Positions 27,975 to 54,411 are shown, counted from the stretch's first letter. The stretch: 60,712 nt of DNA from an uncultured Verrucomicrobiota bacterium (GCA_946623785.1 CAMORM010000002.1:1-60712); one strand, 5' to 3'. A program made the numbers and translations. The notes: generated by a model not told the origin, from the sequence alone.

Positions 27975-28003
27975 AAATCGCACTTGCCACCGCTCCGTTT
28001 TTG

Positions 28004-28012
28004 CGGTACAAT
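28004..28012 (+). promoter_or_regulatory. -10 box CGGTACAAT, 6 nt before ATG 28019 (leaderless candidate)
   Basis: TACAAT hexamer without the T of the TG extension. The ATG opens a signal peptide. Confidence 0.45.
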
Positions 28013-28018: not shown

Positions 28019-31000
28019 ATGATGAAATCAAGACTAGATATACTCCGGCGTTTCGCGCTGGTTGCATGCTTCAGTTTCGCGGCGTTTCCCGTGCTTTCCC
28101 AGGACGCCCAGCAGGCTTCGGAGGCAGACGAGGCGGATGAACCGGCGGAGAAGACCGACCCCCTGATGGAGGAGGAGCTTTCCTACGCGCAGGCGCTGAT
28201 CGAATTCTACCCCGACTACGCGGACCCTGTGATACAGGCGGCCCGCAAGCGCTGGGCGGACGCAGGCCCGCGCCTCACCGCGCTCGAGATGCGCGGCAAG
28301 CTGCGCCTCGGCAAGTTCGACGAGGTGAAGGCAGCTCTCGCCAAGGTCGACAGGAAGACGAAGCCGGGCGAGTACTGGGCGATGAACCTCTCGCTGGGCG
28401 ACGCGTACTACAGCCAGGGCGACATGAAGTCCTGCGCCGCGATATACGACGACTTCTTCAAGTCCGTCCCGAAGCCCGACAAGTCGATCCGCGTCCTTTA
28501 CATCGAGTCCGCCTACAAGTGGGGGCAGATGCTCATCCGCGAGGGCAAGGAGGCTGAGGCCGCCAAGGTGTACGACGGCCTGATCTCGCAGCTCAAGGGC
28601 GCGGACAACCGCCTGCTCCGCGCAACCGTCCAGCTCGACAACGCCGAGCTCCTCCTCAAGCTCGCGGGCGAGGCGAAGGACGACGCCACGCGCAAGGGGT
28701 TCCTCGACCGCGCCGCGAAGCACCTCAAGGAGCCCCTGTGGATGGACGACGAGCCGCTGATCTTCGGCAGGGCGGTGGCGATGCGCGCGCACGTGGAGGT
28801 TCTGCGCGGGAAGCTCTCGAGCGCGAAGGACATGGTCGAGACGTACATCCCGCAGCTCAAGGAGATCCACGAGAGCCTCAAGGAGCAGGACCCGGACGGC
28901 AAGCTCGGGTACCTCCGCCAGTCTCCGATGCCCCAGTGCCGCTACCTCCTCGCGTCGATGATGTGGAAGGGCGTGCAGACGGAGCTCGCGAAGGGCGCTC
29001 CCGACGACGCGCTGATCCTCAACCTCCTCTTCGGCGAGAAGAACAAGAGCACTGGCAAGCGCGTTGGCGGCGGCGCGTACAACCACGCGGTCAACGTGGC
29101 GATCCAGTACCCCGAGTCCACCTGGGCTTCGGCGGCCGACGAGCTGGAGCGCAAGATACGGGAGCTTGTGAAGACGCGCTTCAAAAAGGAGATCAAGACG
29201 GCGATCACGGCCGAGCAGCGCAAGAAGATCCTCCAGATGAAGTTCAAGGACGCGCACGAGCTGTTCGGCAACAACGACTTCGCGGCCGCCGCGCCGAAGT
29301 ACGAGGAGGTACTTGCGGCAGTTCCGGAGACCACCGAGTCCGTGAGGTCCGTCGGCAACCTGATCACCTGCTGGCGCAACATGGTCCAGGACACGAAGGA
29401 CCCGAAGGAGAAGGAGTACCTCAACATGAAGATCGAGGCGGCGGAGGGCTACATCTCCGAGCGCTTCGGAGGGCTCTCGCCCGAGCTCCAGAGGGCCGGA
29501 GGCGACCAGACGCTCATCTTCGCGGCGCGCGAGCACGACAGCGGTGCGCTTGCGCGCGCCCAGCGCCTCTACGACAACTACTTCCAGAACTACCCGACCC
29601 ACCACCAGGCGGCGCAGATGGCGATGTCGCTCGCCTCGCAGGCCTTCCAGAAGGAGGACTACGAGACGGCGATGCACTACTACGAGGTGATCGTAAACAG
29701 CTACACCAACTCGCCGTACTACGTCCAGTCGCTCGGCCAGCTCTCGACGGCGGCCGGCAAGCTCGGGAACAACACGCTCGAGCTCGACTGGCTCCGCAAG
29801 TACGCCGCGCGCTGCACGAGCCCGTCGATGAAGGCCAACGCCCAGCTCCGCCTCGCCTACGCGCAGCACCGCGAGGGCATGTCGCTTCTGCGCCAGGCCG
29901 GTGAAGAGGCAAACGCCGAGGCGGCAGGAGAGCTCCGCAAGAAGGCGCGCGAGAACTTCGTGCAGGCGGCGCGCGAGTTCATCAAGCTCGTCAAGGACGC
30001 GGAGGCCGCAGCCAAGGACCCGTCCGTGTCCGCCACGGACAAGGCGAACTTCGAGAAGATGCGCGAGGACGCGCTGTACCTCATCGGCGACTCGATCCAG
30101 CGCATGCCGGCCGAGGGCAACGGCGATCCGCGCGCCGTGGCCGCACAGAAGTACAACGACTACCTCGCGGCGTACCCGAAGGGCAAGTTCGCCCCGACGG
30201 TGCTCATGAAGCTCGGCACGATCTACATCGCCACGACGAACACCGTGAAGCAGCAGGAGGTCTTCCAGCGCCTCGAGCGCGACTTCCCGGAGTCCGACGA
30301 AGCCAAGAACTCCAAGCCCCGCCTCGCCAAGACCCTCATGGACATGGGGCTCACGCAGGAGGCCGTCAAGCAGTACGCCGAGATGGTCGGCACGGACGCG
30401 AAGTATACCTCGCAGCAGCTGATGCAGGCCGGCGAGGCGCTTCTCGAAGGCGGCGGGAAGGACGGGCTCGACACGGCCATCCGGGCGTTCGACAAGTCAA
30501 TTGCGCGCGCCGGCACGAACCTGAACATGCTCGCCGTGATCGGCCGCTGCAAGCTCGGCAAGGGCAAGGCGCTTATGGCGCAGAACCGCCTCGTCGAGGC
30601 GCAGGAGCTCATGAGGAACTTCATGGACGACAAGCAGCTCGGCCGCACGACGATGGCGCTCGACGCGAACATGATGCTCATAGAGGCGGCTTCGAAGGCC
30701 GGCGAGAGGGAGCGCGACGACGATGCCCGCGAGACCTGCTTCAGGGACGCGCTTGCAGCGCTCCAGAAGGTCAAGCACCGCGTGAAGGGCGACGCCAGGA
30801 AGGAGAAGGAGCTTGCGCTTCTCGGCGGCGACATCCTCCTGAGGCGCATGCACGCCGAAGAGGCCATGAAGCTCGAGGAGCAGATGGTCAAGACGCGCGG
30901 CAGCGCCATCGCGAGCTACCGCGGCTACATCATGGGCAACAAGGTCGACGAGCAGCACCCCGCGTCCGGCATGCAGGCGTGGGAGCTCTCCAACCTCGAG

Positions 31001-31186
31001 CATGCGTACGCGTGCGTGCTGCCGCTCATCGCGGCACACATCCCCACCATCAAGGAGGACGACGTGCGCAAGGAGCTCGTTGCGGACGTCAACAGCCTTG
31101 GCGGCGAGTATCTCGAGCTCTTCCCGAACGGCAAGCACAAGATCGACGTGCAGAACGCGATGAACCTCGCGTCCGCCCAGCAGTGA
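28019..31186 (+). CDS. Large secreted TPR-repeat protein (1055 aa)
   Basis: ORF trimmed to ATG 28019, which lies 6 nt after TACAAT. Signal peptide MMKSRLDILRRFALVACFSFAAFPVLSQ. Helical TPR-like repeats run throughout. Confidence 0.8.
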   Translation: MMKSRLDILRRFALVACFSFAAFPVLSQDAQQASEADEADEPAEKTDPLMEEELSYAQALIEFYPDYADPVIQAARKRWADAGPRLTALEMRGKLRLGKFDEVKAALAKVDRKTKPGEYWAMNLSLGDAYYSQGDMKSCAAIYDDFFKSVPKPDKSIRVLYIESAYKWGQMLIREGKEAEAAKVYDGLISQLKGADNRLLRATVQLDNAELLLKLAGEAKDDATRKGFLDRAAKHLKEPLWMDDEPLIFGRAVAMRAHVEVLRGKLSSAKDMVETYIPQLKEIHESLKEQDPDGKLGYLRQSPMPQCRYLLASMMWKGVQTELAKGAPDDALILNLLFGEKNKSTGKRVGGGAYNHAVNVAIQYPESTWASAADELERKIRELVKTRFKKEIKTAITAEQRKKILQMKFKDAHELFGNNDFAAAAPKYEEVLAAVPETTESVRSVGNLITCWRNMVQDTKDPKEKEYLNMKIEAAEGYISERFGGLSPELQRAGGDQTLIFAAREHDSGALARAQRLYDNYFQNYPTHHQAAQMAMSLASQAFQKEDYETAMHYYEVIVNSYTNSPYYVQSLGQLSTAAGKLGNNTLELDWLRKYAARCTSPSMKANAQLRLAYAQHREGMSLLRQAGEEANAEAAGELRKKARENFVQAAREFIKLVKDAEAAAKDPSVSATDKANFEKMREDALYLIGDSIQRMPAEGNGDPRAVAAQKYNDYLAAYPKGKFAPTVLMKLGTIYIATTNTVKQQEVFQRLERDFPESDEAKNSKPRLAKTLMDMGLTQEAVKQYAEMVGTDAKYTSQQLMQAGEALLEGGGKDGLDTAIRAFDKSIARAGTNLNMLAVIGRCKLGKGKALMAQNRLVEAQELMRNFMDDKQLGRTTMALDANMMLIEAASKAGERERDDDARETCFRDALAALQKVKHRVKGDARKEKELALLGGDILLRRMHAEEAMKLEEQMVKTRGSAIASYRGYIMGNKVDEQHPASGMQAWELSNLEHAYACVLPLIAAHIPTIKEDDVRKELVADVNSLGGEYLELFPNGKHKIDVQNAMNLASAQQ

Positions 31187-31208
31187 CACTTCTAAGGAGA
31201 AAAGAACA

Positions 31209-32030
31209 ATGCGCAGAATCATAACAGCAATCGTCTTCGCCGGCGTGGCGGCTTTCGCCGGCGAGCTCAGGGCCGCAGCGGCGGCGCAGGGAACCCTGTA
31301 CACGAAGGACGGCGGGCACAAGTCCGGCGTCATAAAGTGGAGCGCCCGCAACAGGTCGTACGTGATCACGCAGAAGCAGGCGAACGGCTCGACCATGGAC
31401 ATGGAGGTGGAGGCCAAAAACGTTGAGCGTCTCGACATCAAGCCGCCGCAGGGCATGGACCAGGCAATCAAGGCCGTGGAGTCGGGCAATGGCGCCGGCC
31501 AGATCAAGTTCCTCGAGCAGGTCGTCGACGAATACGCCCACCTCCAGTGGGACCAGAAGGCCGGCAGCTACCTCGCGAAGGCGTACCTCGGCGCGAACAA
31601 CGCAGCCAAGGCGCTCGAGACGTGCAAGAAGATCATCAGCGTGGACAAGACCGCGGGCTACAGCGGCGACCTTGCGCCGACGTATTGGCAGGCCCTCATC
31701 AAGAACAACCAGACCTCGACGCTCGACCAGATGCTTGCGAAGGCGGCTTCCAGCGGCGACCGCTTCGCCTCCGGCAGCGCGCTGATCGCCCGCGGCGACG
31801 CGATCATCGCGAAGGACAACACCCCGGCGGGCGCGAAGAAGGCGCTTGTCGACGGCTATCTGCGCGTCATCCTGCTCTACAGAGACCCCGAGGTCGAGCC
31901 GCTTCTACGCCCCGAGGCGCTCTACAAGGCGGCCCAGTGCTTCGAAACGGCCGGGCAGACCTCCAGGGCTTCCGACCTCCGCGCCGAGCTGAAGACCAAG
32001 TACGCCTCCAGCCCCTGGGCCGCGAAGTAA
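31209..32030 (+). CDS. Secreted TPR-like protein (YbgF/CpoB-like by architecture only)
   Basis: AAGGAG RBS. Signal peptide MRRIITAIVFAGVAAFAG. Small beta-rich N-terminal part followed by helical repeats. Confidence 0.65.
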   Translation: MRRIITAIVFAGVAAFAGELRAAAAAQGTLYTKDGGHKSGVIKWSARNRSYVITQKQANGSTMDMEVEAKNVERLDIKPPQGMDQAIKAVESGNGAGQIKFLEQVVDEYAHLQWDQKAGSYLAKAYLGANNAAKALETCKKIISVDKTAGYSGDLAPTYWQALIKNNQTSTLDQMLAKAASSGDRFASGSALIARGDAIIAKDNTPAGAKKALVDGYLRVILLYRDPEVEPLLRPEALYKAAQCFETAGQTSRASDLRAELKTKYASSPWAAK

Positions 32031-32089
32031 GCAACCGTTCAACATGATCGTCAAAACAGTCTAAACAAAAACAAAAAAGGGTAAAACAA

Positions 32090-32896
32090 ATGAAGCTCCG
32101 TAAACTCCTTCTTGCCACCGCACTCCTCTCGGGCCTCGTGGCAGCTCCCCTCGCGTCAGTCCCCGTCCTTGCTCAGGATCAGGATGCAGGCGGCGACCTC
32201 GTAGCCACTGAAGGCGGCGGTGCGCCCGTCCAGACCACCAAGAAGGGCAACAGCGGGTTCCTTGGCGTCATCTTCGGTTCCGGCGCTCTCGGCGTCATCC
32301 TGTGGACGGCGCTGTTCGTCGACGGCGCGATCGCGATCTACTTCATCGTGGACTGCTTCGTGCTCATCAAGCCCGAGAAGATCATGCCCGCCTCGCTCAT
32401 CGCGAACGTCGAAGCCGCCATGGCGGAGGGCGACGTGATGAAGGCGCTCTCCTCCTGCGAGAACGAGCCCGGCCCGATGGCCAACATCCTCCAGGCCGGC
32501 TTCTCCCACGTGGAAGAGGGCTTTGACGTGATCCAGGAGGCGGTCACCGCGGCGGCCGACCTCGAGACCGAGCGCATCATGCAGCGCCTCACCTGGATTT
32601 CGGTGTGCTCGAACCTCGGCCCGATGCTCGGCCTTCTCGGTACGGTGCAGGGCATGATCATGTGCTTCAGCTCGCTGGCTACCGGAGCTCCCGACGTCGG
32701 CTCGCTGGCCCTCTCGATCGGACAGGCCCTCTGGACGACCGCCGGCGGCCTCTGCGTGGCAATCCCGTCCATCACCTTCTTCTACTCTCTCCGCAACAAC
32801 GCGAACCGCCTCATCCTCCGCATGACGGCCCAGACGATGGAGCTCATCAAGGGTCTTCGCAACGTGGAGGTAGTCGGAGACGAGGAGCAGGCCTAA
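32090..32896 (+). CDS. exbB: MotA/TolQ/ExbB proton-channel protein with an N-terminal signal peptide extension
   Basis: Family strings GPMLGLLGTVQGMI and ALWTTAGGLCVAIP. Three TM helices plus a cleavable-looking leader. Confidence 0.85.
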   Translation: MKLRKLLLATALLSGLVAAPLASVPVLAQDQDAGGDLVATEGGGAPVQTTKKGNSGFLGVIFGSGALGVILWTALFVDGAIAIYFIVDCFVLIKPEKIMPASLIANVEAAMAEGDVMKALSSCENEPGPMANILQAGFSHVEEGFDVIQEAVTAAADLETERIMQRLTWISVCSNLGPMLGLLGTVQGMIMCFSSLATGAPDVGSLALSIGQALWTTAGGLCVAIPSITFFYSLRNNANRLILRMTAQTMELIKGLRNVEVVGDEEQA

Positions 32897-32928
32897 TCGC
32901 GGACAGAGTAACCTGAGGTGCTATACCG

Positions 32929-33366
32929 ATGGCGACTAAGACACACGAGAACCCAGAACTCGACATGACGCCGATGATCGACGTCGTGTTCGAGCTCATC
33001 ATCTTCTTCGTGGTGACGCTGAAGATGGCTACGGACAAGGACGAATCCGTGCGCCTGGAGGACGGGAAGCACGGAATCATCCTCACTCCGGAAGAGCTGC
33101 CGCCTTCTCACATCACGATCGACATAGCGAAGAACGGGCGCATTTCGATGGCCAACGTGACTATGCACGGCCCCGAGATCACGCAGAAGATCAGGCAGCG
33201 CGTCGGCAAGTGGGGCACCGACTTCCCGGTGCTCATCCGCGCCGACTGGCGCTGCAAGCACGCCGCCGTTGCCGAGGTCATGAACGCATGCACCGCAGGC
33301 GGCGTGTGGAAGATATCATTCGTGGCTGTCCAGGAACGCAAGTCCGGGCAGAAGAAAACCGACTAA
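32929..33366 (+). CDS. exbD: ExbD/TolR biopolymer transport protein
   Basis: N-terminal LDMTPMIDVVFELIIFFVV motif, including the conserved Asp in the TM helix. Confidence 0.85.
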   Translation: MATKTHENPELDMTPMIDVVFELIIFFVVTLKMATDKDESVRLEDGKHGIILTPEELPPSHITIDIAKNGRISMANVTMHGPEITQKIRQRVGKWGTDFPVLIRADWRCKHAAVAEVMNACTAGGVWKISFVAVQERKSGQKKTD

Positions 33367-33381
33367 CCGAGGAACTGAGCC

Positions 33382-33780
33382 ATGAAATCCAACAGAAAGG
33401 AGCAGGAGCAGCCCAAGCTCGACATGACGCCGATGATCGACGTCGTGTTCGAGCTGATGATCTTCTTCGTGGTCACGCTGAAGCAGGACGACATCTTCTC
33501 CCGCCTCAACGCGAACCGCCCCGCTCCGAACTCAAAGCCGTCCGACTCCGCGCCGTCCGACCAGATCAAGATCGACATCGGTCCGGGAGGCTTCATCCTC
33601 AACGGGCGAGGAATGAGCAAGAGGGACCTGCGCGCGAACCTCAAGTCGCTTTCCGCGACGTCGAGGAACGCCACGGTCCTCATCAGCTGTACGATGGACT
33701 CGCCGCACATGTTCCTCATCGAGGCTCTCGACATGTGCCACGAGTACCGCATGGAAAACCTTTCGATATTCAGTATGTAA
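33382..33780 (+). CDS. exbD: ExbD/TolR biopolymer transport protein (second paralog)
   Basis: LDMTPMIDVVFELMIFFVV motif. Lies 15 nt after the first exbD. Confidence 0.85.
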   Translation: MKSNRKEQEQPKLDMTPMIDVVFELMIFFVVTLKQDDIFSRLNANRPAPNSKPSDSAPSDQIKIDIGPGGFILNGRGMSKRDLRANLKSLSATSRNATVLISCTMDSPHMFLIEALDMCHEYRMENLSIFSM

Positions 33781-33802
33781 GCAAGCAAGGGAGGGTGCAA
33801 AA

Positions 33803-35446
33803 ATGTCACTCAACGAAACAGACAACGTGATAGTCTCCGCCGACAGGTACAACGAAGCCGGCCTGTTCAAGCGCATCGGCAAGATGATGAAGGGCTTGTC
33901 CATGCGCCGCGACAGCCGCGAATACAAGGAGGCCCTCATCGAGCTGCAGCGCCTCTCGGCGCCGCTCACCGCAATACTGCTCCCGACGCTCGCGGTCATC
34001 ATCCTGATCGTCGTGTCGGCGGTAAGCGGAAACAAGCACGAGGAGATCCGCGCCGACATTGCGATGAACGACGACCAGGAGGAAAAGCTCGAGGAAATCG
34101 AGCCGCCGCCGGAAATGGAGCCGCCGCCGGAAATGGAGGTCGACCCCACGATCATGACCGACGTTCCCGCAGTGGGCAATCCTTCCGAGGTCGCGAACGC
34201 AATCGTCTCGAACGAGCCCGTAACCCCGAAGGTGAACAGCATCGACGCCATGCAGATGATAAAGTCGCCCGTCACGATGAAGAGCGTGTTCGGTTCGACC
34301 CGCTCCACCGGCAAGCGCGGCGCGTTCACCCGCGGCGGCGCACAGTACGGCGACGTGTTCACCGAGGCGGCGGTGCTCAAGGCCCTTCGCTGGCTCAAGC
34401 ACACCCAGAAGACCAACGGCAGCTGGGACGGTGGCTCCGCGCCGGCGATGACCGGCTTCGCGCTGCTCACCTACCTCGCCCATGGCGAGACTCCCTCGCA
34501 GTCGAAGGAGTTCGGCTATACCGTGCAGAAGGCGATCGAGTACCTCTTGAACTCCATCGAGTACGACCCCGACGGAAGGGCAAAGGCCTTCAAGGGCCAG
34601 GACGGCAACCAGTACTCCTTCCCGATCGCGACCTACGCTCTCTCCGAGGCGTACGGCATGACCCACAACCCGGACATCAAGTACCCGGCCGAGGCGTGCC
34701 TCAAGCGCATCGTCGACAACCAGTCCTCCACAGGCGGCTGGGACTACAAGCTCAACAAGGCCTCCAACCGCGACGACACCTCGCTTGGCGGCTGGTGCAT
34801 CCAGGCGCTCAAGGCAGGCAAGATGGCCGGCCTTCACCCGGACGGCCTCGACGAGTGCATAAAGAAGGCGATCAGCTGTCTCAAGACGCGCTCCTACGAC
34901 GAGAAGATCGGGTTCAAGTACACGGCCGACAGCAAGGGCGGCGGCGGACTGGCTGGCGTCGGCTGCCTCGCGATGCAGCTTCTCGGCTACAGCAAGGAGC
35001 CCGAGGTGCGCAACGCCCTCGGCGTGATGCGCGACTGGCTCCCGTCCTTCGACCCGATCAACGGCACCAACAAGAGCCCGCAGTACTACTGCTACTACGC
35101 CTCCCAGTGCAAGTACCAGGCCGGCATGGCCAAGTCCGCGTCGAAGAGCGACGCCGAGCTCTGGAAGAAGTGGAACCTCGAGATGAAGAAGCTCTACCCG
35201 CCCTCCATCATCACGCTCGACGAGAAGATCGAGGACGCGAACGGCAAGCTCCAGGAGATGGGCTACTGGCAGAACAAGGACCAGCACTTGCCCAGCAAGA
35301 CGATGGGCACCTGCCTTGCCGCCCTCCAGCTCATGGTCTACTACCGCTACCTCCCAACGACCTCCCTCAAGGCGACGGACGTCGAAGTCGACATCAACGA
35401 GGCCGCGAAGGACGCGTCCGAGGTGGGCGTCACGGTGGACATCTAA
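33803..35446 (+). CDS. TonB-position protein: N-terminal TM anchor, Pro/Glu linker, then a prenyltransferase/squalene-cyclase-like alpha/alpha toroid domain
   Basis: GGGAGGG RBS. TM helix LTAILLPTLAVIILIVVSAV. Linker EEIEPPPEMEPPPEMEVDP. Two QW-like motifs (LRWLKHTQKTNGSWDG and LKRIVDNQSSTGGWDY). I could not recognise a TonB C-terminal domain. Confidence 0.75.
   Translation: MSLNETDNVIVSADRYNEAGLFKRIGKMMKGLSMRRDSREYKEALIELQRLSAPLTAILLPTLAVIILIVVSAVSGNKHEEIRADIAMNDDQEEKLEEIEPPPEMEPPPEMEVDPTIMTDVPAVGNPSEVANAIVSNEPVTPKVNSIDAMQMIKSPVTMKSVFGSTRSTGKRGAFTRGGAQYGDVFTEAAVLKALRWLKHTQKTNGSWDGGSAPAMTGFALLTYLAHGETPSQSKEFGYTVQKAIEYLLNSIEYDPDGRAKAFKGQDGNQYSFPIATYALSEAYGMTHNPDIKYPAEACLKRIVDNQSSTGGWDYKLNKASNRDDTSLGGWCIQALKAGKMAGLHPDGLDECIKKAISCLKTRSYDEKIGFKYTADSKGGGGLAGVGCLAMQLLGYSKEPEVRNALGVMRDWLPSFDPINGTNKSPQYYCYYASQCKYQAGMAKSASKSDAELWKKWNLEMKKLYPPSIITLDEKIEDANGKLQEMGYWQNKDQHLPSKTMGTCLAALQLMVYYRYLPTTSLKATDVEVDINEAAKDASEVGVTVDI
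34100..34135 (+). repeat. Perfect 18-nt tandem duplication inside the TonB-like linker
   Basis: GAGCCGCCGCCGGAAATG occurs twice, encoding EPPPEM EPPPEM. Confidence 0.9.
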
Positions 35447-36670
35447 GTGACGTTCCCCGTATTTCTTGCCGCTAAGTACCTAAAGCCGAAGCGGTCGCTA
35501 GCGTCGGTCATCACCTGTGTGTCGGTGACCGGCGTTATGCTTGGTGTGGCGATTGTCGTCATCGTCCGCGCCGTCATGACCGGCTTCGGCGACATGTGGC
35601 AGGAGAAGATACTGAACTTCAAGCCGCACCTGACCGTGCTTGCGCGGTCGGGTGTCGTCATTTCGGACGACGACCGCCTCGTTCCCGAATTCGAGCGGAT
35701 CCCGGGCGTCTCGTGCGTCTCCCCCGAGATCGATACGCGCGTGCTGCTTGCCTGCGAGGGCCGCGTGAGCGCGCCCATGCTCCTGGGCGTGGAGGCCGAG
35801 AGGATGAAGAAGGCCTTCCACCTCGGCGAGCCGTACATGGGGAGATACGACCTCGACGGCGACTCCATCGTGCTCGGCATAGATCTCGCAGAGTCGCTCG
35901 GGGCGTATGTGGGCGCGAAGGTCACGGTCTATTCGCCGAAAACCCTTGTCTCGCGCGACGAAGTCGTTCTTCCCGTGAAGTGGACCGTCACCGGGATCTT
36001 CTCGACGGGGCAGCGCGACTACGACTCTGGCTATGCGGTTGCATCGCTCTACAACGTACGCGAGCTGATGGCGCTCGACAGCGGCGTGTACGCGATCCAC
36101 ATCAAGACCGACTCTCCGGCGGACCACGAGGCCTTCGGCAGAATAGCCGAAGCCGTCCGCGCCACTGCCCCGAACAGGAGGGTGATTACCTGGCAGGAGG
36201 CGGACCGCGGGATATTCAACGCCCTTGCCGTGGAGAAGAACATGATGGCCCTGCTGCTGATGTTCATAACGGTTGTGGCCATGTTCTGCGTAATGAACAC
36301 GCTTCTCGTGCTCACAGTCCAGAAAACCTCGGAGATCGGACTCCTAAAGGCGCTCGGTTTTTCGCCCCTCGAGATAATGGGCGCGTTTGTCGTGCACGGT
36401 TTCGTGCAGTGCCTGGCCGGAATCGTGCTGGGCCTGGGGCTTGCATTCGCCATCCTCGCGAACCTCCAGAACCTTGTAGAGCTTCTCGCCCGCTTCGGGC
36501 TCGAGGTCTTCCCGAAGGCGATCTACGGACTCGACGCGATACCGTACAGAATCGTCACCGCCGATGTCGTGTGGACCGTAGTCGCGGTCGTCGTGTTCGG
36601 CGCGCTCGCCTCCCTCATCCCGGCCACTGTCGCCGTTTCCAAGAACCCAGTCGAAGCGCTAGGAAAGTAG
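35447..36670 (+). CDS. lolE: LolC/LolE-type lipoprotein-release permease (FtsX/MacB fold)
   Basis: GTG start directly after the upstream TAA. N-terminus FLAAKYLKPKR. One TM helix, a periplasmic domain, then three TM helices. Confidence 0.8.
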   Translation: MTFPVFLAAKYLKPKRSLASVITCVSVTGVMLGVAIVVIVRAVMTGFGDMWQEKILNFKPHLTVLARSGVVISDDDRLVPEFERIPGVSCVSPEIDTRVLLACEGRVSAPMLLGVEAERMKKAFHLGEPYMGRYDLDGDSIVLGIDLAESLGAYVGAKVTVYSPKTLVSRDEVVLPVKWTVTGIFSTGQRDYDSGYAVASLYNVRELMALDSGVYAIHIKTDSPADHEAFGRIAEAVRATAPNRRVITWQEADRGIFNALAVEKNMMALLLMFITVVAMFCVMNTLLVLTVQKTSEIGLLKALGFSPLEIMGAFVVHGFVQCLAGIVLGLGLAFAILANLQNLVELLARFGLEVFPKAIYGLDAIPYRIVTADVVWTVVAVVVFGALASLIPATVAVSKNPVEALGK

Positions 36671-36682
36671 GAGCCGCGGACA

Positions 36683-37342
36683 ATGCTGCTTGAAGTCAAA
36701 TCGCTTGCGAAGACGTACAGGATTCCGGGACAGCCCGCGGTCGAGGTGCTGAAGGACGTGTCGTTCGAGGTGGCGTCAGGCGAGCGCGTCGCGATCGTAG
36801 GCCGGAGCGGAGCCGGGAAGTCAACGCTCCTCAACCTGCTCGCGGGGCTGGACAGGCCGACTGCCGGTTCGGTGACCCTCGACGGCCGCAAGGTCACCGG
36901 CAAGGTCCGCGCCGCCAAGATAGGATTCGTGTTCCAGAGCTACAACCTGCTGCCTGAGCTCGACGTGCTGGAGAACGTGACCCTCCCGGCGATGTCGTTC
37001 CGCGCGCCAGCGAGCATGACGGCGGCGAGGAAGCGCGCGGCCGAGCTACTCGAGGCGGTCGGGCTTTCCGCGCGAGCGCACCATCTCCCCGCGGAGCTTT
37101 CGGGCGGCGAGCAGCAGCGCGTCGCGCTTGCCCGTGCGCTCGTGTGCGGCCCGGAGCTCATCCTTGCGGACGAGCCCACGGGCAACCTCGACTCGCTCAC
37201 CGGCGCCGACATAATGCGCCTCCTCGTCGAGCTTTCGAAGGGGACCGACCTCGCACTCGTGATGGTCACGCATTCCGCCGAGGCCGCCGCCGCGTGCTCG
37301 CGAGTCCTCCGCCTGGAAGCCGGGCGCATAGCAGCTTCCTGA
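36683..37342 (+). CDS. lolD: LolD-type ABC ATPase
   Basis: Walker A GRSGAGKST, signature LSGGEQQRVALARAL, Walker B ILADEPT. Confidence 0.85.
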   Translation: MLLEVKSLAKTYRIPGQPAVEVLKDVSFEVASGERVAIVGRSGAGKSTLLNLLAGLDRPTAGSVTLDGRKVTGKVRAAKIGFVFQSYNLLPELDVLENVTLPAMSFRAPASMTAARKRAAELLEAVGLSARAHHLPAELSGGEQQRVALARALVCGPELILADEPTGNLDSLTGADIMRLLVELSKGTDLALVMVTHSAEAAAACSRVLRLEAGRIAAS

Positions 37343-37398
37343 AGGCGCCGCTCCTGCGGCGAGAGGCAGATTTTCTAGTGTGACGCGCGCGCCTAAAA

Positions 37399-37407
37399 TG
37401 GTATAAT
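37399..37407 (+). promoter_or_regulatory. Extended -10 box TGGTATAAT, 7 nt before ATG 37415 (leaderless candidate)
   Basis: Exact motif. Confidence 0.6.
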
Positions 37408-37414
37408 GCGCGCC

Positions 37415-39046
37415 ATGAAAATCACAGACGTACTTGCAGAGAACGCGGCCAAGTGGCCGAACGACGTCGCGCTTGTCGAGATCAACCCGCAGGAGCTCGA
37501 GAACCGCCACACAACGTGGCGCGAGTATTCCCTCATCGAGTCCTCTCCCGTCGAGGCCTTCAGGAGCGAGATAACCTGGGCGCAGTTCGAGGAGAAGGCG
37601 AACCGCTTCGCGAACCTGCTGCTGAGCCGCGGCTACAAGAAGGGCGACAAGGTCGCGATCCTCCTCATGAACTGCCTCGAGTGGCTGCCGATATACTTCG
37701 GCGTCCTGCGCGCGGGATGCATGGCCGTCCCGCTCAACTTCCGCTATACCGCCGACGAAATCAAGTACTGCCTCGACCTTTCGGACGCCGACGCGCTCGT
37801 GTTCGGCCCCGAGTTCACCGGACGCGTGGAGCAGATAGCGGACCGCATCCCGCGCGTGCGGGCGCGCTTCTACGTTGGCGACGACTGCCCGTCGTTCGCG
37901 GAGCCGTACCGCATCGTCTCGTACTGCTCGTCAAGGACGCCTTCCGTGGAGATTGCCGACGACGACGATGCCGCTGTCTACTTCTCGTCCGGCACGACCG
38001 GCTTCCCGAAGGCGATCATCCTCCGCCACTCGTGCCTCATGCACTCCTGCCGCGTGGAGCAGAACCACCACGGGCAGACCAAGGACGACTGCTTCCTCTG
38101 CATCCCGCCGCTCTACCACACCGGCGCGAAGATGCACTGGTTCGGAAGCTTCCTCGTGGGCGGCAAGGCAGTTCTCCTCAAGGGCGTGAAGCCGGAGTGG
38201 GTCCTGCGCGCCGTGAGCGAGGAGCACTGCACGATCGTGTGGCTGCTGGTGCCGTGGGCGCAGGACATCCTCGACGCGATCGAACGCGGCGACGTGAAGC
38301 TCTCCGACTACAGGCTCGACCAGTGGCGCCTCATGCACATCGGCGCGCAGCCTGTTCCCCCCGCGCTCATCAGGCGCTGGAAGCAGGTGTTCCCGAAGCA
38401 CGACTACGACACGAACTACGGGCTTTCCGAGTCGACCGGGCCAGGCGCGGTGCATCTTGGCGTTGAGAACATCGACCACGTTGGCGCGATCGGAGTCGCG
38501 GGCTACGGATGGCAGACGAAGATCGTCAACCCCGACGGCTCCGAGGTCGAGCCCGGCAAGGTGGGCGAACTTGCGCTCAAGGGCCCCGGCGTGATGAAGG
38601 AATACTACAAGAACCCGGAGGCGACGCGCGAGATACTTTCGCCGGACGGCTGGCTCCGCACAGGCGACATGGCCGAGCTGCGCGACGGCTTCATCTACCT
38701 TGTTGACCGCGCGAAGGACGTCATCATCACCGGCGGCGAGAACCTCTATCCCGTGCAGATCGAGGACTTCCTGCGCGGCAACGACGCGATCAAGGACGTT
38801 GCCGTGATCGGCCTTGCGGACTCCCGCCTCGGCGAGATCGCCGCTGCGATCATCGAGGTCAAGGAGGGCAGGACGCTCACCGAGGCGCAGGTGAACGAGT
38901 TCTGCCTCGGGCTTCCGCGCTACAAGCGCCCGCGCAAGGTCATCTTCGCGCCCGTGCCGCGCAACCCCACGGGCAAGATAGAGAAGCCGAAGCTCCGCAA
39001 GATGTACGGGGCGGATGCGCTCGTGGCGCAGCAGAACGGACTGTGA
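37415..39046 (+). CDS. AMP-dependent acyl-CoA synthetase/ligase
   Basis: ORF trimmed to ATG 37415; ATG 37406 lies inside the -10 box. Motifs SSGTTGFPKA, GWLRTGD, PRNPTGKI. Confidence 0.85.
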   Translation: MKITDVLAENAAKWPNDVALVEINPQELENRHTTWREYSLIESSPVEAFRSEITWAQFEEKANRFANLLLSRGYKKGDKVAILLMNCLEWLPIYFGVLRAGCMAVPLNFRYTADEIKYCLDLSDADALVFGPEFTGRVEQIADRIPRVRARFYVGDDCPSFAEPYRIVSYCSSRTPSVEIADDDDAAVYFSSGTTGFPKAIILRHSCLMHSCRVEQNHHGQTKDDCFLCIPPLYHTGAKMHWFGSFLVGGKAVLLKGVKPEWVLRAVSEEHCTIVWLLVPWAQDILDAIERGDVKLSDYRLDQWRLMHIGAQPVPPALIRRWKQVFPKHDYDTNYGLSESTGPGAVHLGVENIDHVGAIGVAGYGWQTKIVNPDGSEVEPGKVGELALKGPGVMKEYYKNPEATREILSPDGWLRTGDMAELRDGFIYLVDRAKDVIITGGENLYPVQIEDFLRGNDAIKDVAVIGLADSRLGEIAAAIIEVKEGRTLTEAQVNEFCLGLPRYKRPRKVIFAPVPRNPTGKIEKPKLRKMYGADALVAQQNGL

Positions 39047-47356: not shown

Positions 47357-50300
47357 TCACCGAATGATCAAGGCCATGCCTGTATTAGCCGGGCGCACAA
47401 ACAGAACGCCGTCGGCCACACTCGCCTTGCAGCGATTGAAGTCGCCGGCGTTGCGGATGCGGAGGGCATTCGGAAGCGCAATCTCGCCGGAAACCGCCGC
47501 AACAGGCGTCCAGCCGGACGGAGCTTCTTCGTCGGCGGCAAGGCCGAAGTCGATCGCCGCGCGGTCGCCAAAGGCGAGGTCTCCATCGACGGAGAGAACG
47601 GAGCCTTCGTCGCCGAGGACGATTGCGTCTGTCACAGTAAGATTGCCCGCAACTGCGCCACTCGCGGCGATGCGCGCGACGGAAGCGCCAGTCTCGCCAA
47701 GATCGCCAAGATCGAGAATCGCGCCGTCGGAGACGGCCACGTCGCCGGACAGGGCGGCAGCGTTCGCCGCGACGAGCGTACCCGCCTCAACTTTGACAGG
47801 ACCCATGAATGTATTCGCGCCGGAAAGCGCGAGCGTGCCCGCGCCCTTCTTCACGAGGCCGCCGTCCGCCGCGCCGGAGAGCGCCGGGTCGGTCAGCATC
47901 GGCTGCGCGATTGTGTATGTCGCGTCGGCGGGAAGGTTCTCCGTGGATATCACCGCGCCGCCATCCGAGACGTAGACTACGTTCAGGTTCTGCATCGTGC
48001 GGTTCGCCTCGTCCTTGCCGTAGGGCATGAACGTGCCCCCGTTGAAATAGACCTTGGGCACGGCCTGGTCGTTGGTCATCATGATGTTCTCCGCCTTCAA
48101 AACGCCGCCGTTCAGGTAGAGTCCGAAATGGTAGAGGATGGATTCGTAGTGGACACCGCCTTTGGTGTTCACCTTGCTGTTCCGGCTCAGGTCGAGCAGC
48201 CCCGTCACGTCGACCTCGCCGTCGTTGAGTACGAGGCAACCTGGAATGCCGGTCTGATCGGCGATGGCGTTGTAGTAGTAGAGATAGAATGTGCCGCCGA
48301 CGGCGACCCGCCCTCCGTTGACCGTCAGCTGCGAGTACAGCTTGTCGCCGGATTTGCTGATGTTGCTTCCGAACCGCACGTCGCCGGAAACGTCGAGGGA
48401 TCCGCCGTTCACCGTGACTTCGCACCCGTAGCGGGGATTCTGGGTCGTATCCACCGGTGAGGTGCGGTAGACGGAATAGACGGCTGGAACCGAGAGCGAC
48501 GCCCCGCTTTCGATGGTGAGGAATCCCTGGTGGGGGTGGTTCGCGTCCACGCCCGGCGCCGGATTGTAGCCGAGGTAGAGTGCGCCGGATGCCGTGACGT
48601 TGCCGGAGATGGTGAGCGATGTGTCGACGCACGGATCGGCTTCGCCGCCATAGGCGCCGCCAAGGACGATCTTGTCGTAGCCGGCGTCGGCGGAGAGCGT
48701 CTTCGGGGTCGGATAGCTTGTGGACCCCGTGACGACAATGTCGTTGGCGATGGTGACGACGAGGGCCTTGTAGCCCGCGTAATCGCCGCTGGCAAGCGTC
48801 ACCTCTTCGGCGGAAAGCGTCGCACTTTCGGGCACGTCTGCGGGAAGGCGGAAGAGCGACGGATCGACGCTGCACGACGCCTGGTAGACGAGGGCGGTGT
48901 AGGTGCCGGACGAGAGGGTGGAATCCCTGAACCAGTCGCTCGTCACCGAAAACGCCACCGGCGAGAGGACGGAAAGCGTTCCGGAGACAACGACGTTGTT
49001 GAGTGCCTTGTTGTTCGATCCGTCGAAGGCCACCGGCTCCGTCGCGCCCGCTTCGCCGAGGGTAAGATTGCCAATCTGCATGGTCCCCTTGTTGTCGTAC
49101 GGACGGAAGCGCGAACCAGGCGCGAACGAGATGGTCTGGCCATCGAGCGACGTGGATGTTCCGCCGGCCGTCGCGCCGCTCTCGACGCGGATGCCGCCGT
49201 TGAGCGTCGAGCCCTTAAACCGACCGCCGAAGAGGACGAGCGAGCGGTCTCCGGGGATGCCCCTGACGGTGATGCCTCCGTCCAGGTCCGCGCAGTCCGG
49301 GTCGTGGTCGATGTGACCCTGCACGGATGCGCGCACCCATTCGAAGGCTTCGTTGTTGTTGTACCAAGCGTATCCTTTCGGCCGCTCCCATTTCGCAAGG
49401 TCGATGACGAGACCGTGTTCGCCAACGGTCGCCGGCTGGTAGTTCAGATAGAAGCGGTTGCCGTCGGTGCTGGTATCCAGGCCGACGGGATAGAGGGTGC
49501 CGCCGTTGAAGTGGAACATTGGACGTTCGGTCTGGTCTGTGTCGCGAAGGCTTTGCGAGTCTTCAATGCTCCGCGCGATGATGGAGCCGCCCTCCTCCAG
49601 GTAGAGGTCGAAGGAGGAACCGGTGGACGACACCGGGCGGATGTAACCATTCTCGACGCGAAGCGTGCCGCCGTCGTGGATGGTGAGCGTTCCGCCGGTT
49701 TCCGAGCCGATGACATTGCGGGACACGACCAGAGTCCCGCGGACCTCGATGTCGGTGTCCACGACGAGGTCTCCGGTCACCTTCACGTATCCGCCGCTGG
49801 TCGCGGCGGCATCCAGGGCGCTCGACGCGGCGGCGATGGTCATGGAGAGCGTCGCCGTGTCGCCGCTCGTCGTCACCGCGAAGGAGTAGACGTTGCTGCT
49901 AGCGGCAGTCGCGCATGACCAGTTGACGGCGCGGAGCGCGTCGGCGTAGGCGACGGGAACTTGCAGCACCGTGTAGGTGCCGGCGGCGTTCTTCGTCCCG
50001 ATTGCGGGCGTGTTGGCGTTGTACAGGGCGACCTTTGCGCTCGCCGGCAACGTGACGGAGTCGGTGACTTTCAGGGCGCAGAGCGTGTCGGCGAAGCCGA
50101 GGATGGCGCCTTCCCCAAGCGTCAGAGAGGCCACCGTCTTCTGTGAGCTTCCAGAGCGCAACTGGCATCCGCTCCCCACGGTGACAACCGAATCGTTCGG
50201 CAAATATCCGTTTTTGGCCATGAAGAGGGCGGCTCCATTCTTCAAAATCGTCGGCCCTTCGTAGGACTGCGTCGTGTAGTAGGCCCAGTTGCCACCGTCG

Positions 50301-51499
50301 AACGTCACGCCTTGCGCGGTCTCGCCCGCCCCGGCCGGAATGGCCGACATGTCCTTGTAGAGCTGCGCGTACTTCGCCGTCTTCCCGCCGCCGCGGAACG
50401 TCGCCCCCTTGGGGCCGATGGCGACGATTGGCCCGACATTCCCGTTATTGTCCGCCTGGAAGAACTGGAAGAAGTTTTCTCCGCCCGAGGCGCTGGAATC
50501 GTTGCGAACGATGCCGCCATTGATTGAAAGCCTTGTGACGGTGGAGCCGGGAGCCTCGATGACGGTGGCGATGCCGAGGATGCCGCCGTCTGTGACGGAA
50601 GCAGTCGTTGTCGAACCGCTTGTGGACGTGATTTTGTTGGCGCGGACCTCGCCTCCGTTGGACGCGGAAATGTCCATCACCGCCCCGCTGCCATTCGCAT
50701 AGAGAGAACCCTTTGTGGCGAACAGGCCGCCGTCATGGACATTGAGCGACCAGCAGTTCCCGGCGCCCGCGTAGGTGTAGCAGTATTCGGAGTTGGTGAT
50801 CACCGCCGTCCCGGAAATGTCCGTGACGTTCGTGGCGTAGGTGGTCTGGTATCCGGCGATGATTCGGTGATTGTTCATGTTCCATGCGCCGCCGGTCATG
50901 GTGAACGTTGATTTCGTGCGGGAACCCGGGGAAAGGAAGAGGTTTTTCTCTCCCATCGTCACGGTGCCGGCGCTCATCGTGAGCGAGACGTCTTCGCCGG
51001 TTCCGCCCTGGGTTCCAAGGAAGAACTGCAGGGAGAACGTCGATGTGCCGTCGGCGATCCCGAGGGCGCCGTCGGCAAGCGTGACAGCCTCGGCGAACGT
51101 GCTGTCGCCGGTGAGCGTCCAGCCGTCGGGGGCTTCGATGTTGAAGGCTCCCGTTCCCGTGATGTCGCCGCCAAAGGTGCCGGAGCCGCGCAGGGTGCCG
51201 CCGGAGACGGTGAACGTCCCCGCGCCGACGGGCGAAGGCCCGCCCGCAGGAATGTCGCCTGTGAGGATGAGCGTGCCGCCGGAAAGCGTCGTTCCGCCGG
51301 TGTGCATGTTGGAGGGATTGAGCTTCACTGCACCGGGGCCTGAGACCTGAACCGCTGTATCGCCCGTAAAGAGCGAAAGAACATTGGTCGTTACGCCCTC
51401 GGGCGGCTCGAGTGTTACCGTATCTGCCATCGCAGACGAGTGAACCGCTGCAATTGCCGAAACCAATGCAAGAATGCGAACCCGAGTAGAGAACATCAT
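47357..51499 (-). CDS. Giant secreted autotransporter-associated beta-strand-repeat protein
   Basis: 1380 aa. AGGAGG RBS and signal peptide MMFSTRVRILALVSAIAAVHSSAMA. Many Gly-rich repeats of the GGTLxLxG type (e.g. KKGAGTLALSGANTFMGPVKVEAGTLV). Ends in GMALIIR. Confidence 0.85.
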   Translation of the reverse strand: MMFSTRVRILALVSAIAAVHSSAMADTVTLEPPEGVTTNVLSLFTGDTAVQVSGPGAVKLNPSNMHTGGTTLSGGTLILTGDIPAGGPSPVGAGTFTVSGGTLRGSGTFGGDITGTGAFNIEAPDGWTLTGDSTFAEAVTLADGALGIADGTSTFSLQFFLGTQGGTGEDVSLTMSAGTVTMGEKNLFLSPGSRTKSTFTMTGGAWNMNNHRIIAGYQTTYATNVTDISGTAVITNSEYCYTYAGAGNCWSLNVHDGGLFATKGSLYANGSGAVMDISASNGGEVRANKITSTSGSTTTASVTDGGILGIATVIEAPGSTVTRLSINGGIVRNDSSASGGENFFQFFQADNNGNVGPIVAIGPKGATFRGGGKTAKYAQLYKDMSAIPAGAGETAQGVTFDGGNWAYYTTQSYEGPTILKNGAALFMAKNGYLPNDSVVTVGSGCQLRSGSSQKTVASLTLGEGAILGFADTLCALKVTDSVTLPASAKVALYNANTPAIGTKNAAGTYTVLQVPVAYADALRAVNWSCATAASSNVYSFAVTTSGDTATLSMTIAAASSALDAAATSGGYVKVTGDLVVDTDIEVRGTLVVSRNVIGSETGGTLTIHDGGTLRVENGYIRPVSSTGSSFDLYLEEGGSIIARSIEDSQSLRDTDQTERPMFHFNGGTLYPVGLDTSTDGNRFYLNYQPATVGEHGLVIDLAKWERPKGYAWYNNNEAFEWVRASVQGHIDHDPDCADLDGGITVRGIPGDRSLVLFGGRFKGSTLNGGIRVESGATAGGTSTSLDGQTISFAPGSRFRPYDNKGTMQIGNLTLGEAGATEPVAFDGSNNKALNNVVVSGTLSVLSPVAFSVTSDWFRDSTLSSGTYTALVYQASCSVDPSLFRLPADVPESATLSAEEVTLASGDYAGYKALVVTIANDIVVTGSTSYPTPKTLSADAGYDKIVLGGAYGGEADPCVDTSLTISGNVTASGALYLGYNPAPGVDANHPHQGFLTIESGASLSVPAVYSVYRTSPVDTTQNPRYGCEVTVNGGSLDVSGDVRFGSNISKSGDKLYSQLTVNGGRVAVGGTFYLYYYNAIADQTGIPGCLVLNDGEVDVTGLLDLSRNSKVNTKGGVHYESILYHFGLYLNGGVLKAENIMMTNDQAVPKVYFNGGTFMPYGKDEANRTMQNLNVVYVSDGGAVISTENLPADATYTIAQPMLTDPALSGAADGGLVKKGAGTLALSGANTFMGPVKVEAGTLVAANAAALSGDVAVSDGAILDLGDLGETGASVARIAASGAVAGNLTVTDAIVLGDEGSVLSVDGDLAFGDRAAIDFGLAADEEAPSGWTPVAAVSGEIALPNALRIRNAGDFNRCKASVADGVLFVRPANTGMALIIR

Positions 51500-51529
51500 G
51501 ATATATCTCCTCCTGATTTCGATAATGCT

Positions 51530-51538
51530 ATTATAGCA
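51530..51538 (-). promoter_or_regulatory. Extended -10 box TGCTATAAT (minus strand) upstream of the giant repeat protein
   Basis: Reverse complement of ATTATAGCA. It overlaps the stop of the EEP-GDPD gene. A 30-nt leader carries AGGAGG. Confidence 0.45.
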
Positions 51539-53258: not shown

Positions 53259-53275
53259 CCTCGTGTTTGCAAAAC

Positions 53276-53284
53276 ATTGTATCA
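53276..53284 (-). promoter_or_regulatory. Extended -10 box TGATACAAT (minus strand) upstream of the EEP-GDPD gene
   Basis: Reverse complement of ATTGTATCA, 17 nt before ATG 53258. Confidence 0.45.
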
Positions 53285-53335
53285 CAATCCCCCGCACACC
53301 ACAACTACAGCGGTAACCCCAGAAAACAAAGCCTT

Positions 53336-53382: not shown

Positions 53383-53385
53383 CGT

Positions 53386-54399: not shown

Positions 54400-54411
54400 G
54401 AGAAGATAGCG

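Follow-up and report, generated by a model that had tools for sequence, protein, structure and literature searches.

In diderm bacteria the Ton and Tol systems are the textbook routes by which energy from the inner membrane reaches the outer envelope, and both rely on one homologous family of transducers, TonB and TolA. What is to be made of a locus that keeps the motor of such a system and follows it with a protein of a different fold? The locus in question lies in a contig of an uncultured Verrucomicrobiota bacterium (GCA_946623785.1, CAMORM010000002.1:1-60712), the whole 60,712 nucleotides (nt) of which are referred to here as the window. Eight co-directional open reading frames (ORFs) on the + strand, A to H, occupy positions 28019-37342. 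They encode two secreted proteins of which the first is a giant tetratricopeptide repeat (TPR) protein (A and B), an ExbB/TolQ-family protein (C), two ExbD/TolR-family proteins (D and E), a 547-amino-acid (aa) protein with a toroidal domain (F), and a LolC/E-like permease with a LolD-like ATPase (G and H). Does the motor act through F, or is F an enzyme encoded beside a motor that works through something else? If F does transmit force, is the output like that of Tol, like that of Ton, or like neither? We consider it probable that F is a motor-coupled force transducer. Taken as a whole, and with modest assurance, the locus is best explained as a Ton/Tol-like envelope machine of a type found in the Planctomycetes-Verrucomicrobia-Chlamydiae (PVC) bacteria, with F as the transducer and a leaning towards Tol.

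The motor proteins belong to well defined families. C (32090..32896, +) matches the Pfam family MotA_ExbB (PF01618) at 6e-25 with 87.9 bits (cut-off 22.9). D (32929..33366, +) and E (33382..33780, +) match ExbD (PF02472) at 2e-21 and 7e-19, with 77.0 and 68.6 bits respectively (cut-off 25.4). All three scores exceed the gathering thresholds, and the stator of one ExbB and two ExbD proteins proposed in a preliminary description of the locus is borne out. In C a type-I signal-peptide-like start is accompanied by a short N-terminal extension on the periplasmic side. The paralogues D and E have periplasmic domains that are unlike each other; both carry MIDVVF, and the transmembrane Asp in it is invariant across 59 D-type homologues and present in 98% of 60 E-type homologues. 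The order of the D-type and E-type genes is identical in all loci examined. In NCBIfam the top matches of the motor genes are tolQ and tolR, not exbB and exbD, at scores well under the cut-offs: C matches tolQ TIGR02796 at 5e-17 and 62 bits (cut-off 221), and D and E match TIGR02801 with 44 and 23 bits (cut-off 127). On this family membership C, D and E together are a predicted proton-driven inner-membrane motor. In at least one related genome (locus L167) a second, canonical pair, comprised of a short ExbB (210 aa) and an ExbD (141 aa), lies at 9875-10929, approximately 2 kb 3' of the cassette and past mutL. Since that pair is present, the cassette motor is a specialised paralogue in the L167 genome.

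F (33803..35446, +) is the gene 3' of this pair of exbD-type genes, and it is assigned its candidate role from a structural model, family conservation and linkage. The AlphaFold2 (AF2) model contains a helix at aa 39-74, disorder at aa 75-182 and a toroid at aa 185-515, the toroid having predicted local distance difference test (pLDDT) scores mostly above 85 (range 85–97); beyond the conserved CLAALQLMVYYRYLPT there is a low-confidence tail. The N-terminal segment of roughly 50 aa is conserved and would be cytoplasmic. It leads into a transmembrane helix (aa 53-74; 33959..34024, +), placed by the model and by conservation across 115 family representatives, which in the window protein is APLTAILLPTLAVIILIVVSAV and in which A53, P54, A57, P61 and L68 are conserved. 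Roughly 110 disordered, Pro/Glu-rich residues then link the helix to the toroid. The preliminary description had put a protein with a different output domain in the TonB position and had named TonB_C beforehand as the domain to look for. That claim holds: TonB_C (PF03544 or relatives) is absent from F and from all of 32 diverse relatives (0/32), as is any Pfam match to the vWA (von Willebrand factor A) domain. Because F lacks TonB_C and is built of helix, disordered linker and toroid, its layout is like that of TonB and TolA with an unrelated head.

Two islands of conservation lie within the linker. The first (aa 82-90; 34046..34072, +), seen in the conservation profile, lies between the helix, which it directly follows, and the Pro/Glu-rich stretch; it reads IRADIAMND in the window protein and I-E-V-E-I-V-E-P in the family consensus, with alternating hydrophobic residues. 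In TonB the D-box QPISVTMVTPAD is a Pro-flanked, alternating-hydrophobic strand right after the helix that docks onto the ExbD dimer (PMC10907165), and aa 82-90 may be a motor box of this D-box-like kind. The second island (aa 153-173; 34259..34321, +) is IKSPVTMKSVFGSTRSTGKRG, the most strongly conserved part of the linker, with a pLDDT below 35. S155, P156, R167, G170 and R172 are conserved in 60–90% of F family members, and the portion at aa 153-163 holds SPVTM, the TonB counterpart of which is SVTM (PMC10907165). The pattern and position of the two islands are suggestive, making them candidate ExbD-docking strands. At the other end of the protein, the family C-terminus (aa 516-547; window 35348-35443) has a conserved YYRYLPT followed by an amphipathic [DE][DE][IV]x[IV]x[IV]..[LI]-COOH, which could be a TonB-box-like strand-augmentation motif or a peptide for a TPR domain.

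The toroid itself (34355..35347, +) is a single (alpha/alpha)6 barrel of approximately 330 aa according to the AF2 model, Foldseek and the Pfam matches of relatives. F has no Pfam match at E<=0.01. Among the 32 relatives, 28 match SQHop_cyclase_C (PF13243), 13 match SQHop_cyclase_N and 8 match Prenyltrans, and relatives are named in the databases as 'terpene cyclase/mutase family' or 'prenyltransferase/squalene oxidase repeat-containing' proteins. A QW motif, KALRWLKHTQKTNGSW, is present at aa 193-208. Foldseek finds the single-domain squalene-hopene cyclase (SHC) 8paj at 1e-6, in addition to AGE epimerases, GH76 enzymes and complement thioester-containing (TED) domains; all of the Foldseek matches are generic, at 11–16% identity, and point to no particular ligand for the toroid. 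Similarity of the family profile to SHC 1gsz (1e-16) is confined to the QW stretch. The two-domain (beta-gamma) cyclase fold of about 630 aa is lacking, F being one toroid with a TM-score of 0.34 relative to the 619-aa 1sqc. Residues invariant in the family are scattered (Q202, G206, E282, D325, W457, W489). In the RDDTS segment (aa 323-327), which is not formally aligned to a cyclase, D325 alone is invariant; the Asp preceding it varies, so a catalytic DxDD acid is not suggested.

Is the placement of F behind a motor peculiar to this contig? In a full HMMER search covering 1.84 billion representatives of 50%-identity clusters, the F family had 7634 matches at E<=1e-3, of which 450 reached E<=1e-30; among them are many full-length proteins of 33–45% identity. 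Gene order was compared in 83 Kiritimatiellia-type loci, 80 of which come from a species-level genome scan and 3 from protein look-ups. ExbB-ExbD-ExbD is directly 5' of F in 48 of the 65 loci that have at least 2.5 kb upstream, and in two further loci an insertion of approximately 1.2 kb is present between E and F. Of the 55 loci whose upstream sequence extends for at least 7 kb, 41 have the complete A-B-C-D-E set. At 32–45% F identity the six-gene order is also found in L086 and L173, from metagenome-assembled genomes (MAGs) labelled Verrucomicrobiota or Verrucomicrobia, and in L171 and L172, from MAGs labelled Lentisphaerae. An unclassified MAG (L088) has the same order, its first TPR gene being cut by the contig end. 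These distant cassettes comprise a TPR protein of about 1015–1032 aa, a TPR-like protein of about 270 aa, ExbB, ExbD, ExbD and F. A metagenome scan seeded with the distant F subfamily contributed 80 contigs of 34–70% GC, on which exbD is directly 5' of F in 36 of 63 copies with at least 700 nt upstream.

When these sets are pooled, 104 of 152 assessable F copies are directly after exbD; the others are orphan paralogues. The preliminary description asked whether the toroid protein always follows exbB-exbD-exbD; this is true of most copies and not of all. The order TPR-TPR-exbB-exbD-exbD-F is kept in related and in distant PVC genomes, as it had proposed to check. Such conservation of gene order is far beyond chance. 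The flanks of the cassette vary by locus, for example citrate synthase/ETF-QO in one place and panD/acyl-CoA synthetase in another, which shows that the block moves as a unit. The conserved core is the six genes A to F, present in MAGs labelled Kiritimatiellia, Verrucomicrobia and Lentisphaerae. Taxon labels of MAGs are used here as deposited, several of them being obviously wrong. A typical Kiritimatiellia cassette is found, for instance, in bins (L020, L025, L030, L033, L035, L083) that bear the names Methanomethylophilaceae, Faecalibacterium, Gemmiger, Barnesiella and Azospirillum; the public MAGs concerned were probably misbinned or mislabelled.

Housekeeping functions are encoded next to the cassette: clpX and panD lie beside it in the window, as do recA and asd in L001, and mutL in L086, L171 and L173. 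The mutL gene is 3' of the cassette in these three loci and in L167. In the distant MAGs further F paralogues often come after F, along with mutL. Additional F paralogues in tandem, just 3' of the cassette, are present in L086 (12570-15969), L171 (10931-12598), L089 (2795-4476) and L074 (11891-13675), in MAGs labelled Verrucomicrobia, Lentisphaerae and Kiritimatiellia. In a neighbour-joining tree the exbD-linked and orphan copies of F interleave, and one MAG has both a cluster-linked and an orphan copy (L021, L051). The N-terminal anchor region is retained in most orphan copies. Fifteen of the Kiritimatiellia-type loci hold an orphan F, in contexts as unrelated as GH92 plus a histidine kinase, secY next to an extracytoplasmic function (ECF) sigma factor, and an SDR; a common orphan context, such as a MoxR/vWA operon, can be discarded given these neighbourhoods. 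In L065 (9974-13757) the orphan F is between secY and an ECF sigma/zf-HC2 anti-sigma pair, after which comes a patatin-like lipase, and L066, L070 and L080 have a similar arrangement as judged from ORF sizes. By analogy, the L065 locus recalls TonB-dependent surface-signalling loci.

The two genes that lead the cassette encode proteins with type-I signal-peptide-like N-termini. A (28019..31186, +), of 1055 aa, has only sub-threshold TPR matches in Pfam. It matches TIGR02795, the YbgF/CpoB model, at 2.6e-18 and 66.7 bits (under the cut-off of 90.1), and the YbgF structure 2xev in the Protein Data Bank (PDB) at 4e-4. Homologues of A carry database labels such as 'tol-pal system YbgF family protein', 'TolA-binding protein' and 'BamD', in keeping with its CpoB/YbgF- and BamD-like repeats. 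The AF2 model of A (mean pLDDT 86) is one all-helical TPR superhelix spanning residues 48-1054. Its Foldseek matches are giant TPR scaffolds and generic TPR superhelices, and SusD-like proteins are not among the matches listed. At rank 21 of that list stands 9hmf_K, chain K in the flagellar motor of Campylobacter jejuni, where it belongs to the periplasmic scaffold; it is, by analogy, a precedent for large TPR proteins as the scaffold of 5:2 stators. B (31209..32030, +), of 273 aa, always lies between A and exbB. It has a beta-rich N-terminal segment, where its homologues share the motif G.I.T..G...GDIKW..R.K.Y, and then a TPR-like region. Matches of B to TPR_19 and TPR_6 (E about 1e-4), BamD and YbgF are weak, so of the two TPR proteins in the preliminary description the first is well supported by its superhelix model and the 'TPR-like' label of the second is plausible but weakly shown. 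Could A or B be lipoproteins, explaining the Lol genes? This was rejected because both have type-I signal peptides and comparison of homologues found no conserved lipobox Cys in either.

G and H complete the block in the window. G (35447..36670, +) is a LolC/E-like type VII ATP-binding cassette (ABC) permease with the Pfam domains MacB_PCD and FtsX, and matches the lolCE model TIGR02212 end to end at 3e-70 and 237 bits (cut-off 362). H (36683..37342, +) is a LolD-like ABC ATPase that matches ABC_tran at 3.5e-39 and LolD TIGR02211 end to end at 3e-66 and 223 bits (cut-off 308). The naming of this pair as LolE and LolD in the preliminary description needs qualifying, the matches being full-length with scores that stay under the equivalog cut-offs. 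That description also had the pair transcriptionally welded to the stator. LolCE comes after F in 37 of 42 linked Kiritimatiellia-type loci. Among ExbD-linked metagenome loci this is so in 6 of 23, all six of which score like Kiritimatiellia, and there are no Lol genes after F in the Verrucomicrobia- and Lentisphaerae-labelled MAGs examined or in the unclassified L088. Because they follow F almost only in Kiritimatiellia, G and H are a lineage-specific add-on, and their absence elsewhere rules them out as part of the conserved unit.

The eight genes in the window are tightly packed. The gaps from A to H are, in order, 22, 59, 32, 15, 22, 0 and 12 nt, and the start codon of G is a GTG that abuts the stop codon of F. 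The ORF coordinates, which are those given previously, confirm eight genes on one strand with gaps of 0–59 nt. No terminator-like site was found on the + strand inside the block. A promoter-like site (TTGCCA-17-TACAAT; 27984..28012, +) was found by scanning, its -10 element ending 6 nt before the ATG of A at 28019. When the A genes of 49 related Kiritimatiellia loci (L001-L081) were aligned on their start codons and searched with a regular expression, 41 had a TTGc -35 element, a 17–18 nt spacer and a TATAAT/TATACT -10 element ending 6–10 nt before the ATG; the other eight loci resemble this arrangement by eye. The leaderless-type promoter described previously is therefore no chance match and is conserved in relatives. 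The position of the -10 fits a leaderless or near-leaderless transcript. A separate promoter-like site before the acyl-CoA synthetase gene (GTGACG-16-TATAAT; 37380..37407, +; likely ATG at 37415) was also found by scanning and marks the 3' boundary of the block. The geometry at this acyl-CoA synthetase promoter (window 37380-37417) is the same as that at gene A, and leaderless mRNAs may be common in the Kiritimatiellia lineage.

How might these components work together? C and a heteromeric D/E pair would form an inner-membrane motor driven by the proton-motive force (PMF), presumably of 5:2 stoichiometry with a D-E heterodimer. F would take the role of TonB or TolA, with its single N-terminal helix as the anchor and its two short linker motifs as candidates for docking on ExbD. 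The disordered linker would carry the rigid toroid towards the peptidoglycan and the outer membrane, and the toroid would grip a partner at the outer envelope. A and B may be periplasmic scaffolds or adaptors, as CpoB is for TolA, and the orphan F paralogues may share a single motor in the way that TonB paralogues do. The output would be Tol-Pal-like maintenance or biogenesis of the outer envelope in preference to substrate-specific import. In Kiritimatiellia the cassette would be co-transcribed, and probably translationally coupled, with the LolCE/LolD-like transporter. F is read as the equivalent of TonB or TolA because of its persistent place after two exbD genes across three labelled phyla, its three-part layout, the linear motifs in its tether and its TonB-like orphan paralogues. 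Given the transducer mechanism, there is a slight and tentative lean to a Tol-like output, which comes from the affinity of the proteins to TolQ/TolR and CpoB, from the housekeeping surroundings and from the secondary fusion to Lol in Kiritimatiellia, with its stop-start junction between F and G.

The same mechanism might instead have a Ton-like output, the toroids energising the import of glycans or mucin across the outer membrane in a 'selfish' uptake that dispenses with SusC-type receptors. We think this somewhat unlikely, yet several observations agree with it. As with TonB, there are several F paralogues per genome, in tandem (L086, L171, L089) and as orphans, and the L065 orphan beside its ECF sigma/anti-sigma pair is comparable to TonB-dependent signalling. 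Barrels of the (alpha/alpha)6 type, such as GH76 and AGE, are frequent among folds that bind or process glycans. In Kiritimatiella glycovorans no genes for TonB-dependent receptors of the polysaccharide type were found (PMC5148204). In Akkermansia muciniphila the MUL1 locus, needed for mucin use, has exbB/exbD-type genes beside hypothetical genes including mul1A, according to three reports (PMC11480725, PMC12570417, PMC13174399). However, in the loci examined the cassette has no linked gene for a channel or receptor of the outer membrane. The context is not like that of carbohydrate-active enzyme (CAZyme) genes or of a polysaccharide utilization locus (PUL), TolQ and TolR are the top family matches, and A resembles CpoB. 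MUL1 differs in gene order and is likened to the cassette here by annotation. In addition, some Kiritimatiellota (Pontiella) do carry Pfam domains of TonB_C and of TonB-dependent receptors. A wider proposal would make the toroid-headed F proteins, which number hundreds to thousands of sequence clusters, a PVC-wide class of PMF transducers that arose independently of TonB and TolA and is distinct from the vWA class. With the giant TPR scaffold, the motor and its interchangeable F paralogues would power the uptake of large glycans in those Kiritimatiellota, Verrucomicrobiota and Lentisphaerota that have no SusC-type receptors, as the general counterpart of MUL1. We regard this proposal as unlikely.

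Alternatively, F may not be a transducer. It might be a membrane-tethered periplasmic enzyme or binder of the terpene-cyclase/prenyltransferase superfamily, whose target might be a hopanoid or polyprenyl lipid, or else a glycan, beside a motor that works via an unlinked TonB or TolA. The QW motif, the SQHop_cyclase profile matches and the 'terpene cyclase/mutase family protein' label of homologues are all as this would predict, and so are the orphan copies, the helix without an SHLS/His motif and the second canonical ExbB-ExbD pair in the L167 genome. What makes it quite improbable to us is that the single toroid has no two-domain cyclase fold, that the window F is under every Pfam threshold, and that the invariant residues are scattered, with an RDDTS that suggests no DxDD acid. 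A 110-residue Pro-rich tether with conserved motifs is atypical of enzymes and typical of TonB and TolA, and the place of F after exbD-exbD is kept at 32–45% identity across phyla. The motor could also belong to an Agl-Glt-like or secretion-associated apparatus for surface motility, adhesin movement or a pilus, on a giant TPR scaffold such as that of PflB and the Campylobacter stators. One TolQ-like gene with two different TolR-like genes is reminiscent of AglR, AglQ and AglS; the giant TPR partner has 9hmf_K in its Foldseek list, and gliding has been speculated for vWA-type cassettes (PMC12204202). No Glt-like, pilus or secretin genes are linked to the cassette in the loci examined, however, and the TPR similarity of A is generic. 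The cassette occurs in MAGs from the gut and rumen, in lineages for which we know of no report of gliding motility. This apparatus is very improbable. Neither do A to G match any PADLOC defence model, and an anti-phage defence motor of the Zorya type (ZorA/ZorB) was rejected on this ground; H has generic ABC-ATPase matches only.

Several observations weigh against the transducer reading of F and its Tol-like output. Architecture and gene linkage are what is observed, and it is from these that we infer coupling of F to the motor. The helix of F has no His and no SHLS motif, in the window protein or in the family, and this motif is the one that TonB and TolA use, as do the published vWA transducers (PMC12204202). 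F aa 1-185 give only noise against PDB sequences and resemble no TonB or TolA there. The island at aa 82-90 is modestly conserved, at 1–2 bits per column, and the one at aa 153-173 is at the far end of the linker, unlike a D-box. About one third of the F copies have no adjacent motor, and multiple paralogues suit a multi-target, Ton-like system better than a Tol-like one. TonB_C, TolA, TolB, Pal and TonB-dependent receptors are absent from the likely genes of the 60.7-kb window, and TolA, TolB and Pal from the cassette and the related loci with called genes. The output of the machine is therefore a guess, there being no outer-membrane partner, TolB, Pal or receptor in window or cassette. The Lol linkage cannot define the ancestral function because it is absent outside Kiritimatiellia, and G and H may simply be a housekeeping Lol system parked beside the cassette.

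The remainder of the window has a GC content of approximately 64%, like the window as a whole, up to its 3' part, and almost all genes are on the + strand. Close homologues of the window proteins are in Kiritimatiellia MAGs from the gut and rumen. Trigger factor, clpP, clpX and panD are 5' of the block, and the acyl-CoA synthetase gene and fmt are 3' of it. Rfam families and tRNAs were scanned for as possible leaders or riboswitches and none were found. Two adjacent ORFs of 921 aa and 1448 aa (6892-9657 and 9720-14066) have no Pfam match at E<=1e-4, and the second has a clear signal peptide. An 811-aa ORF (3863-6298) with SBP_bac_1 and BPD_transp_1 is either a binding protein-permease fusion or a missed gene boundary. 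On the - strand (47357-53297) a 1380-aa PATR-repeat protein, similar to an autotransporter passenger, is encoded beside a GDPD/EEP fusion protein. From approximately 52000 to 60712 the GC falls from about 0.64 to 0.51–0.58; an AAA_14/DUF4143 ATPase and a DUF805 protein are encoded there, and this may be an acquired island.

What would a toroid-headed transducer mean? The cassette retains the motor and swaps the head of the transducer for a different fold, without the canonical His motif for motor binding. If F is motor-coupled, then 5:2 motors accept unrelated modules, with toroid, vWA or TonB_C heads. A function would also be suggested for a very large family now mislabelled as 'terpene cyclase/mutase' or 'prenyltransferase repeat' proteins, and there would be a concrete candidate for energising outer-envelope processes in PVC bacteria. 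These are important degraders of polysaccharides in the gut, rumen and sea, and in many of them SusC-type importers or TolA/TonB are reported to be missing. With its small size, a defined promoter and relatives in PVC lineages that are cultivable and partly genetically tractable, the cassette is directly testable. As a whole, the preliminary interpretation is partly supported and largely right.

Compared with Ton, the likeness is in the ExbB/ExbD motor and in a protein encoded after exbD that has an N-terminal helix, a linker that is Pro-rich and disordered, and a globular head. It extends to the short strand-like motif in the linker and to extra transducer paralogues elsewhere in the genome. 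Ton operons with two exbD genes exist, such as that of Xanthomonas with exbD1 and exbD2. F differs from TonB in having no TonB_C and no SHLS/His motif, in its (alpha/alpha)6 head of about 330 aa and in its cytoplasmic segment of about 50 aa. In addition, no TonB-dependent receptor is linked to the cassette and two dedicated TPR genes lead it.

With Tol-Pal the cassette shares the TolQ/TolR top profile matches of C, D and E, the CpoB/YbgF-like repeats of A and the housekeeping surroundings. In Kiritimatiellia it also adjoins a lipoprotein-release system, and in Escherichia coli such a system delivers Pal. In contrast to Tol-Pal, TolA domain III, TolB and Pal are lacking from the cassette and the window, there are two TolR paralogues, A is approximately eight times as long as CpoB and is not lipidated, and the NCBIfam scores are all under the equivalog cut-offs. 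The resemblance of G and H to LolCDE is that of MacB_PCD and FtsX domains with a lolCE profile match, and of a LolD match, each end to end. They depart from it in their scores below the equivalog cut-offs, in the single permease gene and in a linkage to the motor that is confined to Kiritimatiellia.

Myxococcus Agl-Glt has one TolQ-like protein (AglR), two TolR-like proteins (AglQ and AglS) and periplasmic TPR partners, and the Glt machinery uses TonB_C-type proteins. The analogy to it drawn in the preliminary description is apt at the level of one TolQ-like protein, two TolR-like proteins and TPR partners and goes no further: no Glt homologues are linked to the cassette, F has a toroid head, and the likeness is one of architecture only. 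The MUL1 locus of A. muciniphila (Amuc_0543-0548, in which mul1A is Amuc_0544) is also from a PVC bacterium. It has genes for MotA/TolQ/ExbB and ExbD/TolR proteins beside 'hypotheticals', and its annotation includes no TonB in the locus (PMC11480725). It is described as required for the transport and utilisation of mucin and is likened to a Sus-type system (PMC12570417, PMC13174399). The gene order, as it follows from the numbering, differs from that of the cassette, being hypothetical, hypothetical, hypothetical, ExbD, hypothetical, ExbB (PMC11480725).

A further comparison is with the vWA-headed, non-TonB transducers that were put forward in 2025 for PVC cassettes of this type (PMC12204202). 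In a Kiritimatiellota species without a discernible TolA or TonB, TPR-tolQ-tolR-tolR cassettes are followed by a vWA-headed transducer (PMC12204202). The same elements are found here, namely a gene for a TPR protein, one tolQ-like gene, two heterologous tolR-like genes and then the transducer candidate. The differences are a toroid head as opposed to the Rossmann-like vWA, a helix in F without the SHLS/His motif, and two TPR genes as opposed to one. None of the words toroid, terpene, prenyl and cyclase appears in that paper (PMC12204202), and a full-text literature search returned no relevant paper linking ExbD/TolR with squalene-oxidase-repeat proteins. A toroid-headed transducer family and its six-gene PVC cassette thus appear to be undescribed in the searchable literature, and the concept of a transducer other than TonB, to which they would belong, now has a published sister case in the vWA type (PMC12204202).

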